Positions 21,866 to 25,638 of a stretch of DNA of 26,818 bases are shown piece by piece. Source of the DNA: Candidatus Bathyarchaeia archaeon (GTDB taxonomy: Archaea; Thermoproteota; Bathyarchaeia; Bathyarchaeales; Bathycorpusculaceae); assembly GCA_049512075.1 (NCBI GenBank), contig JBEKXL010000028.1, forward strand, positions 1 to 26,818. Reading direction: 5' to 3'. The notes under the pieces are model-generated. The model was not told where the DNA came from, did no database searches, and saw only the letters and a program-made list of their open reading frames with translations. The number at the start of each line of letters is the position of its first letter. Positions within the stretch are counted from its first letter, which is position 1. The position numbers and the translations under genes are program-made.

Positions 21866-22102
21866 CTATTTGCTTAGAAGCTGTGTTTTTCCTTCTTCCT
21901 TCTTCTTTGTTCCATTCTTCATCATGTACAACCCGACAAGCAGGAAAACGATGCTGCCAAAGATTTCAGGTCCAAAGGTTACCAAGCTCAAACCAGTGCT
22001 GATTACTAAGGTGTACCAGAATATGTTGAACAGGACAATGACAGAAATTGCACAGAATATTAACCCCCACCAGAAAACCCTTGTCTTTTCACCCTCAAAC
22101 AT
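21866..22102 (-). CDS. Small two-TM membrane protein
   Basis: Two hydrophobic helices and a Lys-rich tail; SD-like GTGGTTGA before the ATG. Confidence 0.65.
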   Translation of the reverse strand: MFEGEKTRVFWWGLIFCAISVIVLFNIFWYTLVISTGLSLVTFGPEIFGSIVFLLVGLYMMKNGTKKKEEGKTQLLSK

Positions 22103-22664
22103 GGCTTATCAACCACTACTATCATGATGCAAGAAATATTAAAGATTCTCAGTATATGCCCAAGCACAGACACAATAAATAACACAATACTAAGTATTCT
22201 TGTGCACATAATCCTCAGTACTCCGATAGAAAATCTCTCTTTGGGTCTCTGGAAGTAGTGTCCATAAAATAGAGAAAAAAGATGATATGTAGCCATTTGG
22301 TTTATGAAAAAAGCATTCAGCAGGATGGTGCCCAATATAGAATTCTGCTTATTCCAACAGCCCCTATCTAAGCTTTCAATGCCCTAGAAGTACTTGGTGT
22401 CTGAAGACGGCAAGATCTTGTGCATATTGTGCGAAAATAGGATATCCAGAACTATCTTCCGGCGAACTGCTCAAAGCTGCTAGAACTCTAACTGACAAAC
22501 CTATATTTTTTGATGGAAAACTCGGTTTGAGAATCGTAAATAATCCTTAGAATACATCAAAGGTGTCCTAGGTTCCAATAGCACTGTGAAAACCATTGAC
22601 CCAATTGACCAAAACAGTATTGACCCAAATCTCTTAAATGTTAGTTGCTTCAATGAAAATAGGA

Positions 22665-22742
22665 GGGCTGGTAGTCTAGCTCGGTTAGGACATCTGCTTG
22701 ACGTGCAGAAGGTCGCCGGTTCAAGTCCGGTCCGGCCCACCA
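22665..22742 (+). tRNA. tRNA-Val(GAC), intron-less
   Basis: GGGCTGG/CCGGCCC acceptor, TCTGC-TTGACGT-GCAGA anticodon arm, GGTTCAAGTCC T arm, ACCA end, and a TTAAA box about 28-30 nt upstream. Confidence 0.96.
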
Positions 22743-22743
22743 T

Positions 22744-22896
22744 TTACTGTTTTTGTTCTGTTGAATTGAGGTTGTTTCTATCAGAAACTGTTGAGAATTG
22801 TGTTATTAGTTGTTTTAAGCGGTCTTCAAACGTCTTAGACAAATTGAAGCCAAGATTACGCGTATTTTCAACTAATTCTTTGTCTAGATACGACAT
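22744..22896 (-). pseudogene. CcdA-like ribbon-helix-helix antitoxin remnant abutting the tRNA-Val 3' end
   Basis: Reads MSYLDKELVENTRNLGFNLSKTFEDRLKQLITQF.... The YLD.ELV...R.LG.NLS pattern is CcdA/RHH-like. Stop lies 1 nt from the tRNA CCA; no toxin gene is adjacent. Confidence 0.5.
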
Positions 22897-22936
22897 GACG
22901 TCCGCGTTTTTTCTAGATTAGAATTTTCGCGCGACT

Positions 22937-23389
22937 TCATGTAAGTTTGTTGAGTCTGTTAGTTATGTTTAGGAAGGTGTAGACGGCTTTTAGGTACTCC
23001 GTGAATGTTAGGTCTTTCTGCTTTGGGTGGTATTTGAAGTTTTGTCCAATTTTCTTGTAGAGTTTTTCAATTATTTCTATTTCGAGCAGTTTTGCTCCTG
23101 GACCAATGATTTCTTCAATCGCTTTGGTGAACTTTTCTGTTTTGCATGGGATTTCCTGTTTGCAGATATTGAAGGTTTTTTCTAGGTGGAAGTAGATTAC
23201 TTGTTTTGCTGTTTTTCCTAACGCAGAGAAGGTCTCATCGACTGCGTCAAGTACAAGCTCTTGATAGCTTCGGTTGGATTGTGGAAAAACCTCAAGGAAT
23301 ACTCCATGACTGCCTGCGTTTGTCTCCATTGCTGCAAAAGGCGAGTCTACTTCCTGCGCGCATTGTCTTGACGTAAATACACTCTTCAT
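22937..23389 (-). CDS. DUF3227/NitrOD5-like archaeal protein
   Basis: LDAVDE.FS.LG......IYFHLE.......EIP.....F..AIE.I.G.GA.LLE..I...LY pattern, common in Bathy/Nitrososphaeria. Confidence 0.65.
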   Translation of the reverse strand: MKSVFTSRQCAQEVDSPFAAMETNAGSHGVFLEVFPQSNRSYQELVLDAVDETFSALGKTAKQVIYFHLEKTFNICKQEIPCKTEKFTKAIEEIIGPGAKLLEIEIIEKLYKKIGQNFKYHPKQKDLTFTEYLKAVYTFLNITNRLNKLT

Positions 23390-23637
23390 ACATCTTACCT
23401 CAATATGTAGTTATGTTGTACTGTTTTATTGTTACACGCCTATACAATATGTCTCATATCACATGATTTCATATATAGCTTATTTCGAAAATCGATATAT
23501 CCTAGCGCTAGGGTAGCCGGTGAAGCTTATGAATTTGAATTGTAATTGCACGCGCGCCCACCAAAAAAAGCTTGTTCATATTGGATTCTAGGTTATTTCC
23601 TGAAGAAGCTGTTGAGAACTGAGTGACTAGATGTTTA

Positions 23638-23655
23638 AGTAACACATGAGTTACT
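23638..23655. promoter_or_regulatory. Near-perfect palindrome AGTAACACATGAGTTACT upstream of the polB promoter
   Basis: 18 bp with one mismatched pair, about 25 nt upstream of the TATA-like TTATTTAA (23681-23688). Confidence 0.45.
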
Positions 23656-23739
23656 GAAACGCGCCCTGTATGTCCATATGTTATTTAATGCCCTTGAGAT
23701 TAGTATGATCCAAAAAGGAATTGTCTGGTAAGTGAGTCT

Positions 23740-25638
23740 TTGAACCTTCTCTGCCTTCTGGACGCAAAGGTAACAGAGACAAACGCAATCAAGCTTGAAT
23801 TCGTGGACAGCAACGGCGAATCACAAGAAACCGTTGATGTTGCATATAAGCCCTATTTTCTCGTTGAATGGCCGTTGAAAGATGAAGACAAGGAAATAGT
23901 CAAGTATTTCAGTGGAGAAATTCAACCTGTAGAAAAGATCGACTTGTTCTCTAACACAAAGAGAATTTACGGAAAAGTCTATTGGCCCAACGCCAGAATT
24001 GCTGCGAAAGCCGCGGAGAAGCTTCCTCAGCATTGGGAAAGCGAAGTCGAATTCGGGAAATCCTACGTTTATGATCAAGGACTCGTGTTTGGCGCTCTCC
24101 ATTCCGCGCAGGATTTGAAGGCATCGCTAGAGGTGCCACTTGAGGTCACATATAAATTTGAGAGCCTGTTCAAAGAGATTCAGGCCAGCGACCCATTGAA
24201 ATATGAGCAAATCAGGTACTGGTTCAACCTTCTTAATCAACCGCTACCCAAGCTGGCCCCCGATTTTTTCGGCAAACAAGCAGACGTAGGCGAAGTTAAC
24301 AGAGCCTGCATGTTGGCAAGAATTGCAAACATTCCCATAACTGAGGCTTTCAACAGCAGACACGTGAGTAGCTGGATTAAAGCCATCATGTACACGTATT
24401 TGCGAAAGAACAACATTCTCATCCCCTCTTCTGAAGAGCTAAGGAGGGGAAGACAGACTAGTGCTGTGCCCGGAGCATTGACGATCGCGCCGAAAGCGGG
24501 AACTTACTTTAACACGGTCGTCTGCGATTTCGAAAGTCTGTATGCAAGCTGCATTGACAGTTTCAACCTTTCCCATGAAACAGTCGACTGTGTACACGAT
24601 GAATGCAAAACCAACAGAATCCCCGACGTTGAATACAGTTTCTGCACAAAACGCAGAGGCTTCTACGCAGTCCTTGTCGGCGCTTTGAAAGAGTTGCGCA
24701 TCAAGGTCTTCAAGCCAGCTTCAAGAGACAGCTCCCTGTCCGAAGAAGAGAGAGAAATCGCCCGCGCTGCATCAAAACTGCTAAAACTAATCCTTGTGTC
24801 GAGCTACGGTGTTACCGTCAGAATTCATGGAGTAGCGTGCCGTCCTTTGGCTGAAGCCATCACCGGCTGCGGCCGCCACGTCTTGAGAGAAAGTTGGAGA
24901 ATGGCAGAAGAGAACGGCTTGCATCCGCTTTATGGCGATACCGATTCATTGTTTCTGGATAATGCTTCAAACGCTCAAGTCGAATGGCTGATCAACACGG
25001 TTAAAAACAGGTTTCGATTGGACTTGGCCGTGGATAAGCGTTACAACGTGTGCGTTTTGCCTAAAGCAAAGAAAGCGTACTTCGGAATCCTGCCTGACGG
25101 AACGCCTGACATCAAAGGAGTAACCGCAATCAAGTCCAATTCGCCCCGGTACATCAGAGACGTTTTCGAACGATGTGTGAAAGAGCTTTCCACAGTGAAA
25201 AACCTGCCAGAATATTCTGAGGGAAAGGACCGGATAAAAAAAGTCGTAAGAAATGCCGTAGCAGATTTGAAAAACGGAAACGTCAGGCTTGAAGACTTAA
25301 TCTATTCCGTACGGCTTTATTTTGACCCTAACGAGAAAATAGGCGACATGAAAACAGCACATCAACCCTACCAATGCGCGTCGCAACTCATGAACGCGGG
25401 CAGGAAACTGAAAAAAGGGGACACCGTCTCCTTCGTAAAAGTGAAGCCCTTCAGGTATGAAAAGAGAACTTTCACCGTCAAACCGGCCGAGTTTGTCAAG
25501 AACCTTTCGGAAACAAACGTGAATGATTACATTCGGAATTTGTTGACAGCTTTGAACCAAACCTTTGAATCCATGGACGTAAAACTCAAAGAGGAAAAGG
25601 AAGCTGAAATTTCCAAATGGTTCAATGGATTTCCCTGA
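23740..25638 (+). CDS. polB: Family B DNA polymerase, PolB1-like, lacking the 3'-5' exonuclease domain
   Basis: Motif A DFESLYAS, NLSHETV, motif B KLILVSSYG, motif C YGDTDSLF, KKAYFG and IKG..AIKS. No Exo I DxE / Exo II / Exo III motifs seen. 632 aa. Confidence 0.9.
   Translation: MNLLCLLDAKVTETNAIKLEFVDSNGESQETVDVAYKPYFLVEWPLKDEDKEIVKYFSGEIQPVEKIDLFSNTKRIYGKVYWPNARIAAKAAEKLPQHWESEVEFGKSYVYDQGLVFGALHSAQDLKASLEVPLEVTYKFESLFKEIQASDPLKYEQIRYWFNLLNQPLPKLAPDFFGKQADVGEVNRACMLARIANIPITEAFNSRHVSSWIKAIMYTYLRKNNILIPSSEELRRGRQTSAVPGALTIAPKAGTYFNTVVCDFESLYASCIDSFNLSHETVDCVHDECKTNRIPDVEYSFCTKRRGFYAVLVGALKELRIKVFKPASRDSSLSEEEREIARAASKLLKLILVSSYGVTVRIHGVACRPLAEAITGCGRHVLRESWRMAEENGLHPLYGDTDSLFLDNASNAQVEWLINTVKNRFRLDLAVDKRYNVCVLPKAKKAYFGILPDGTPDIKGVTAIKSNSPRYIRDVFERCVKELSTVKNLPEYSEGKDRIKKVVRNAVADLKNGNVRLEDLIYSVRLYFDPNEKIGDMKTAHQPYQCASQLMNAGRKLKKGDTVSFVKVKPFRYEKRTFTVKPAEFVKNLSETNVNDYIRNLLTALNQTFESMDVKLKEEKEAEISKWFNGFP

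Follow-up and report, generated by a model that had tools for sequence, protein, structure and literature searches.

The DNA analyzed here, which we call the window throughout, is a 26,818-nucleotide stretch from a Candidatus Bathyarchaeia archaeon (contig JBEKXL010000028.1, positions 1 to 26,818). Towards its end it carries a gene for a family B DNA polymerase (PolB) that resembles PolB1 and has no 3'–5' exonuclease domain; we refer to this protein and its relatives as the short form. The open reading frame (ORF) is a single frame of 632 codons with a TTG start and zero internal stops, and a public homologue (P0002; 95% identical, 632 amino acids (aa)) has the identical start. The gene is surrounded by a tRNA-Val gene and by genes for an aminotransferase, a methyltransferase, a CBS protein, and a histidine kinase. 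Coordinates are compiled in Table 1.

We searched the 632-aa protein against domain and family models. Pfam returned PF00136 for residues 210–611 (profile positions 12–452 of 453, E 2.9e-31, 109.2 bits against a cut-off of 23), and no exonuclease family, PF03104 included, was matched even at E ≤ 1. Among the ten NCBIfam families found, the top models were the three PolB1 equivalogs NF004417, NF004419, and NF004415, with scores of 362.3, 318.9, and 258.4 bits. All three remained below their cut-offs of 780, 1285, and 1289 bits, respectively, and the match to the first fell into two stretches. Because the exonuclease domain is absent and the curated score was failed, we file the protein as a PolB1-like subfamily and not as PolB1.

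The best sequence match in the PDB was PolB1 (Dpo1) from Saccharolobus solfataricus (1s5j, phmmer E 1.1e-63). It was aligned in two blocks, i.e., residues 34–172 to 49–190 and residues 191–612 to 399–822, which left about 208 residues of 1s5j without counterpart in the window protein. The genome from which the window stems (G000; 2.73 Mb in 86 contigs, 99.8% complete) also encodes a full-length PolB1 of 896 aa (G000:C13). Compared with this enzyme, the protein has an 18-residue linker, APDFFGKQADVGEVNRAC, at the place of a 208-residue segment with the motifs Exo I (VAIDIEV), Exo II (FNGDDFD), and Exo III (YCFRD). In the N-terminal domain that precedes the linker, P38, Y39, W99, E100, P168, and P170 are invariant between the two proteins. 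The linker measures 18–21 aa in twelve family members (the window gene and 11 others), and the deletion was seen in all 239 rows of three alignments with 127, 37, and 75 rows, respectively, P0126 and P0127 being counted in two of the three. P0192 and P0179, considered as further short forms, were rejected as N-terminally truncated fragments that still contain Exo II. We conclude that the entire exonuclease domain was lost from a PolB1-like polymerase. An earlier note on this DNA had described an unbroken frame in which a linker of about 15 aa leads past some 200 absent aa, and its account of the sequence is confirmed in all details. A full-length PolB1 elsewhere in the genome, which it had proposed to look for, is present, and the deletion is not confined to this assembly, which would have spoken against the note.

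We predicted the structure of the window protein with AlphaFold2 from 117 aligned sequences (mean predicted local distance difference test (pLDDT) 92.4, predicted template modelling score 0.87). Residues 1–165 were modelled as a strand-rich N-terminal domain followed by two helices, with a block pLDDT of 88–97 for the first N-terminal segment. DSSP assigned coil to residues 166–182 and helices to residues 183–196, 200–205, and 209–223, after which palm, fingers, and thumb were all present. The model contained no exonuclease fold, the finding that could have spoken against the earlier note, and only coil at its expected place; an α/β exonuclease fold cannot fit there because the linker has only 18 residues. 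In structural alignments with VIA-align, 1s5j again ranked top (Z 35.6, root mean square deviation 2.9 Å over 518 aligned residues, 27% identity). Foldseek matched the model to archaeal PolBs with E values down to 4e-32. For Thermococcales PolBs, 541–545 of 757–773 residues were aligned to the model by VIA-align, and therefore about one exonuclease domain remained unmatched. The remaining architecture is that of an N-terminal domain followed, after a short loop, by an entire palm–fingers–thumb unit.

PolBs are recognized by motif A (DxxSLYPS), motif C (YGDTDS), and a KxY motif, and the tyrosine of their YxGA motif has a role in polymerase/exonuclease switching. Judged by sequence conservation, the polymerase center of the short form is complete and its catalytic residues are intact: D263, the steric-gate Y268, K349, D400, D402, K445, and Y447 are invariant in the three sets of 127, 37, and 75 rows. 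Conservation is similar around them, with T401 in motif C found in 126/127 and, in the KKAY stretch (residues 444–447), A446 in 127/127 and K444 in 125/127 rows. Other positions have changed. The YxGA tyrosine, present in the G000 PolB1 as Y-K-G-A, is replaced by Val in 125/127, 37/37, and 73/75 members, with the Gly and Ala invariant or nearly so. Motif B of the window protein retains Lys, Ser, Tyr, and Gly of the Kx3NSxYG consensus, and has Val instead of Asn; this V353 is found in 126 of the 127 rows, as is Y356. Position 269, directly after the steric gate, is Pro (SLYPS) in 115/127 rows and Ala (SLYAS) in the remaining 12, the window gene among them. The earlier note had listed intact catalytic Asp motifs and steric gate, VPGA, the motif B Val, and SLYAS. 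Of these, SLYAS is present in the window protein and cannot be taken as a family trait, and the others characterize the family as a whole. We take the Val-for-Asn exchange in motif B and the Ala-for-Pro exchange of this lineage to lie at nucleotide-contact positions. The family-wide loss of the YxGA tyrosine would fit a polymerase in which the primer need not be moved to and from an editing site any more, and loss of the motif B Asn may reflect altered nucleotide selection.

Table 1. Features of the short-form gene, its surroundings in the window, and a stand-alone exonuclease gene elsewhere in G000. Motif names occur in PMC7544198.
Feature	Position	Strand	Basis
Whole gene, exonuclease-less PolB1-like family B DNA polymerase, 632 aa	23740..25638	+	ORF, TTG start, stop included; PF00136 only
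N-terminal domain, first segment, aa 1–172, up to the QP.P.L block preceding Exo I in PolB1	23740..24255	+	Residues 34–172 on 1s5j 49–190
18-aa linker, aa 173–190, replacing the 208-aa 3'–5' exonuclease domain	24256..24309	+	Alignment to G000 PolB1; DSSP coil 166–182
Post-exonuclease helices of N-terminal domain, aa 191–240, MLARIAN..VSSWIK..NILIPS	24310..24459	+	Aligns to 1s5j from residue 399
V-P-G-A, YxGA/YxGG position, Tyr to Val, aa 243–246	24466..24477	+	Motif conservation
Motif A, DFESLYAS, aa 263–270, catalytic Asp263, steric-gate Tyr268, Pro269 to Ala	24526..24549	+	Motif conservation
Motif B, KLILVSSYGV, aa 349–358, Lys kept, Asn to Val	24784..24813	+	Motif conservation
Motif C, YGDTDS, aa 398–403, both catalytic Asp	24931..24948	+	Motif conservation
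K-x-Y motif, K-A-Y, aa 445–447	25072..25080	+	K445, Y447 invariant
PIP-like box, EAEISKWF, aa 621–628, family consensus E-T-E-I-S-R-W-L	25600..25623	+	C-terminal conservation
tRNA-Val(GAC) gene, 1 kb upstream of polymerase gene	22665–22742	+	Stretch of lower G+C, 0.39 over 22001–24000
150-aa ORF just upstream of polymerase gene	22937–23389	-	Sub-threshold NitrOD5 match, PF11537, 20.1 vs 27 bits
Stand-alone DEDD-type exonuclease, 166 aa	L008:1240-1737 = G000:C12:11545-12042	-	Weak PF13482, PF03104, PF10108 matches

A word-indexed protein search gave 997 proteins at E ≤ 0.001, and the best 120 of these were all 613–667 aa long, 63–95% identical, and matched PF00136 only. When representatives at 50% identity were searched exhaustively, six full-length short forms came first (614–656 aa, 39–54% identity, 440–734 bits, aligned in one stretch). 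They were followed by a sharp gap, after which only PolB1s of at least 800 aa appeared, with at most 290 bits and in two stretches. In the window's class, Bathyarchaeia, 22 of 201 genomes contained the short form with 436–1444 bits, the next match having 277 bits; in these 22, the N-terminal part was either matched or cut by a contig end. These genomes belong to 7 of the 32 family codes of the class sample (f1, 6/28; f2, 2/9; f4, 4/4; f5, 3/7; f23, 1/1; f25, 3/10; f29, 3/22), and each of the 22 additionally encodes a PolB1 that includes the exonuclease region. Among 401 genomes sampled across the phylum, 14 matched at E ≤ 1e-100, all in the window's order, and zero among the at least 238 genomes whose family codes are absent from the class sample. 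Named records comprised 46 loci with 51–94% identity, all annotated as Candidatus Bathyarchaeia or Bathyarchaeota metagenome-assembled genomes (MAGs), five of them titled chromosome. The short form is hence a chromosomal accessory paralogue that is always additional to a proofreading PolB1 in the sampled genomes. G000 itself contains four family B genes, i.e., a PolB3-type (794 aa), the PolB1 with Exo I–III, a PolB2-type (766 aa), and the window gene, and furthermore PolD and two Y-family genes.

Outside Bathyarchaeia, we found a sister subfamily consisting of P0127 and 36 relatives (P0291–P0326; 643–679 aa, 57–90% identical to P0127). Where named at NCBI, its members are assigned to Promethearchaeota, Hermodarchaeota, Hodarchaeota, or Thorarchaeota, i.e., to Asgard archaea. 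They share the deletion, have Gly for the motif B Tyr (position 356) in 37/37 rows, and end in a long acidic tail with the terminal sequence QQKRLxD[FY]. Any single Asgard-named MAG may be mis-binned, yet several differently named records hold the subfamily. Altogether, the short forms are a sizeable and conserved family, apparently not described before, that occurs in Bathyarchaeia and Asgard-named archaea.

To place the short forms among PolBs, we calculated a 45-row LG+G4 tree. Support is given as values of the Shimodaira–Hasegawa-like approximate likelihood ratio test (SH-aLRT). All short forms fell into a single clade (SH-aLRT 100), whose stem has a length of 0.6 and branches near the base of PolB1, and the Bathyarchaeial full-length PolB1s were a separate clade (SH-aLRT 99). 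Both were grouped with PolB1 representatives and apart from PolB2 and PolB3 of G000 (SH-aLRT 99), outgroups that sit on long branches. The same arrangement was obtained in a 33-row LG+C20 PMSF tree without outgroups; rows left out were 25 and then 12 more, i.e., near-duplicate family members, half of the PolB1 representatives, and both outgroups. Forcing short forms and Bathyarchaeial PolB1s together cost 58 and 30 log-likelihood units, with p values of 0.0014 and 0.022 in the approximately unbiased test, which are weakened by quick searches and by the choice of groups with the first tree already known. The short forms are thus a deep clade in PolB1 that lies outside the Bathyarchaeial PolB1 clade, and a sister relation of the two is rejected by the data. 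Due to the long stem, the placement may be displaced by long-branch effects. The derivation from PolB1 proposed in the earlier note is therefore right in a loose sense only. Among the short forms, those from the window's order mostly clustered with each other. G169 (f1) was found with f25, and Asgard-named P0127 beside f29; some transfer is therefore likely, and the Asgard-named branch lies inside the Bathyarchaeial diversity.

We compared evolutionary rates of the polymerases in G000 and its close relative G201. The ratio of nonsynonymous to synonymous substitution rates (dN/dS) was 0.167 for the short form, 0.058 for PolB1, 0.108 for PolB3, and 0.157 for PolB2. Across 28 pairs of family members it ranged from 0.04 to 0.27 and was thus not neutral, which could have spoken against the earlier note. 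Over 15 genome pairs used for both proteins, the path lengths of the short form were 1.4–2.8 times those of PolB1. The short form is under purifying selection at the level of PolB2.

How does the short form relate to polymerases already known? PolB1 (Dpo1) is its best match in both sequence and structure, and the two share the N-terminal blocks, motif A, motif C, KxY, and a Cys-rich segment after motif A. It differs in the replacement of 208 aa by 18 aa, in having Val at both the YxGA Tyr and the motif B Asn positions, in its faster evolution with scores below the equivalog cut-offs, and in being an accessory gene that is not universal. The short form is, in the loose sense given above, of PolB1 descent and would work like PolB1-type enzymes. 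PolB2 has an altered, His-containing motif C with a single Asp and degenerate Exo motifs (PMC7544198). The PolB2 enzyme Dpo2 lacks exonuclease activity and Exo motifs, inserts accurately, and acts as a translesion extender of mismatched and lesion-paired ends (PMC8764526; PMC7544198). Like PolB2, the short form is a family B paralogue without proofreading beside replicative PolBs, and its dN/dS is similar. In contrast to the short form, PolB2 retains a degenerate exonuclease-sized region (the G000 PolB2 has a weak PF03104 match), and its motif C reads HGIVDS in G000. Because motif C and clade both differ, the short form is not a PolB2, in agreement with the earlier note. Eukaryotic Pol α, which extends primers, and Pol ζ, which extends mismatches and lesions, are likewise non-proofreading family B enzymes (PMC7544198; PMC8764526). 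In the cellular PolBs known to work without proofreading, an exonuclease region persists in dead or degenerate form (PMC7544198; PMC8764526). The short form, by contrast, belongs to a PolB1-like lineage and has lost the very fold of the exonuclease. We found no published description of an exonuclease-less PolB1 group, including in the available text of PMC7544198 and PMC4104785, whose supplementary tables may list members under B1; such a clade in print would have spoken against the earlier note. The short form is thus an apparently undescribed, conserved variant of the archaeal family B polymerase.

The searches also revealed peculiarities of the full-length paralogues. In many f29 and f20 genomes, PolB2 occurs as two adjacent frames that cover query residues ~1–484 and 481–753 (e.g., G164:C30, G128:C4, and G068:C98), which is a conserved split gene. 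Many PolB1 representatives (among P0132–P0264) are 1100–2100 aa long and match in 3–5 stretches, and the PolB1 frame of G158 (G158:C6:16295-20068) is 1299 aa long and contains an insert close to query residue 630. These oversized PolB1s are likely due to inteins.

PCNA-interacting peptide (PIP) boxes have the consensus Qxx[ILM]xx[FYW][FYWL] and are located at a terminus. The short form ends in a PIP-like box in which I624 is conserved in 120/127, W627 in 123/127, and L/F628 in 118/127 rows, a tail that presumably resembles the PCNA-binding tails of archaeal PolBs. We predicted the complex of the window protein with the PCNA of G000. Its median score of 0.48 compares with 0.01 for the best control; of the complexes with a solved structure, 58 of 80 attain this mark, and of the mismatched pairs 2 of 110, scores up to 0.60 counting as weak. 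For the partner, pLDDT was 51 or higher, and the runs agreed in 87% or more of their contacts. Since PCNA–PIP complexes have already been solved, this pass may reflect mere likeness. The PCNA gene of G000 (254 aa) is directly followed, within L111:1492-3310 (G000:C6), by a gene for 346 aa with a Cys-rich C-terminus, perhaps a primase large subunit. Moreover, most of 21 Bathyarchaeial full-length PolB1s examined (L002:106-2793, L040–L059) start, or nearly start, with a PIP-like motif (MAQKRLEDF.. or variants of it). A QKRLxDF motif is thereby common to PolB1 N-termini and to the C-terminal end of the Asgard-named short forms.

The genomic neighborhood was analyzed in 17 loci. ORF clustering found no family in more than 5 loci except the polymerase itself. 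Neighbors were of housekeeping type and differed by lineage (aminotransferase, methyltransferases, radical SAM, lipoate ligase, acetyl-CoA synthetase, ATPase, pyrophosphatase), with lipoate ligase, radical SAM proteins, and acetyl-CoA synthetase being semi-conserved. The NitrOD5-like ORF upstream of the window gene is not kept beside the polymerase in other loci.

On balance, we lean towards a catalytically competent PolB of PolB1 ancestry from which the exonuclease was excised in frame and which would serve as an accessory enzyme in specialized, non-proofread synthesis. It would polymerize DNA without proofreading where an editing site hinders, i.e., in extension from mismatched or lesion-paired ends or in repair gap filling, and it would be recruited to PCNA through the conserved C-terminal I-S-x-W-L tail. 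A specialized extender or gap-filling role is favored because PolB2/Dpo2 is the nearest functional analogue in print; eukaryotic Pol ζ would be a further analogue. Taken together, the short form is probably an active, non-proofreading, PCNA-tethered repair or extender polymerase. Several points weigh against this assignment. With a PolB2 and two polymerases of the Y family, G000 has no evident need for one more translesion enzyme. In motif C, in the Lys and Tyr of motif B, and in the steric-gate Tyr, the short form matches accurate PolBs, and therefore error-prone insertion, which the earlier note had thought possible, does not follow; also Dpo2, the closest analogue, inserts accurately (PMC8764526). 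The PIP-like tail is without the canonical Gln, and the score of the predicted PCNA complex is weak. No damage-response or repair genes adjoin the short form in the loci examined. We also considered replacement of PolB2 by the short form and rejected it, since both co-occur in 14 of the 22 short-form genomes; PolB2 is found in 69/201 genomes overall, and as the genomes are interrelated this comparison is not a statistical test.

Two other readings likewise assume an active enzyme. The short form might be a replication accessory that, similar to Pol α, extends primase products without proofreading or fills short lagging-strand stretches and gaps before PolD or PolB1 take over. We regard this as unlikely. 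Eukaryotic Pol α is indeed a family B polymerase that lost proofreading (PMC12680538), and the intact active site of high-fidelity type, the PCNA-like tail, and the availability of PolD and PolB1 for bulk synthesis would all suit such a role. With only 22/201 class genomes, however, the short form is not a core replisome part; in the 17 loci, neither primase nor PCNA nor any other replication gene was linked to it, and its dN/dS resembles that of PolB2, not PolB1. Proofreading might otherwise be provided in trans by an exonuclease encoded elsewhere, as with ε-like subunits. This has a precedent in Kunpengvirus, a virus of Bathyarchaeia, in which PolB and a DEDDy exonuclease are two separate genes (PMC10541130). 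G000 has a 166-aa stand-alone DEDD exonuclease on C12, and also PolD with its DP1 exonuclease. We rejected the 166-aa protein as trans partner because it is found in 1/201 class genomes and the polymerase in 22/201; being present only in G000, it may be part of a mobile or defense island. Profile searches found no other DEDD exonuclease in G000: PF00929 had no match, and PF10108 matched only PolB1 itself. Moreover, no exonuclease gene was a conserved neighbor in the 17 loci, and the tyrosine associated with polymerase/exonuclease switching is lost family-wide. We hence consider proofreading in trans improbable.

That the gene encodes a replicase which came with a virus, a plasmid, or another mobile element and settled in the chromosome would agree with its patchy distribution, with the signs of transfer for G169 and the Asgard-named branch, and with the tRNA-Val gene 1 kb upstream. 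Also, the exonuclease domain is completely absent, as in the short form, from protein-primed PolBs of mavirus-like virophages and polinton-like viruses (PMC11161782). Those enzymes, however, are viral and fused to other domains, whereas the short form is cellular and chromosomal. Its best viral-contig match in IMG/VR was only 28% identical, and a phage collection gave at most 30% over part of the protein, and we therefore rejected a viral origin. No integrase or other mobile-element gene was seen next to the tRNA-Val gene, and no integrase, capsid, or replication-module genes occurred in the 17 loci with their lineage-varying housekeeping neighbors. The fairly steady rate ratio to PolB1 is moreover expected of mostly vertical descent. 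A mobile replicase is accordingly very doubtful. Least credible to us is a non-catalytic remnant, be it a pseudogene in decay or a protein with a structural or regulatory task: evolution faster than that of PolB1 and the NCBIfam scores far under the cut-off would fit it, but the catalytic residues are invariant in 239 rows, the frames are unbroken, and the low dN/dS values speak against decay.

Within the preferred reading of an active accessory polymerase, a wider proposal can be made, which we put forward tentatively and would not yet back against the narrower one. Bathyarchaeia and Asgard archaea may share a deep PolB1 lineage in which the exonuclease fold was discarded and not inactivated, and whose members might act as a PCNA-tethered mismatch/lesion extender or a Pol α-like starter. 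Nature would then have arrived at cellular PolBs without proofreading in a third, independent way, and the lineage would supply an "exo-minus" scaffold, ready for use, in which nucleotide-contact motifs are altered.

In this conserved group, the domain has been cleanly removed and a textbook active site kept, whereas the known cellular primer-dependent PolBs without proofreading, i.e., Pol α, Pol ζ, and PolB2, have a dead or degenerate domain. If the short form is active, a PolB core can function and be under selection even when the exonuclease domain, by which the DNA-binding ring is normally closed, is missing, and two abundant uncultured archaeal groups would have an extra polymerase in their repair or replication toolkit. 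An active short form would also offer natural variants at the motif A Pro, the motif B Asn and Tyr, and YxGA, positions that polymerase engineers mutate to change substrate range.

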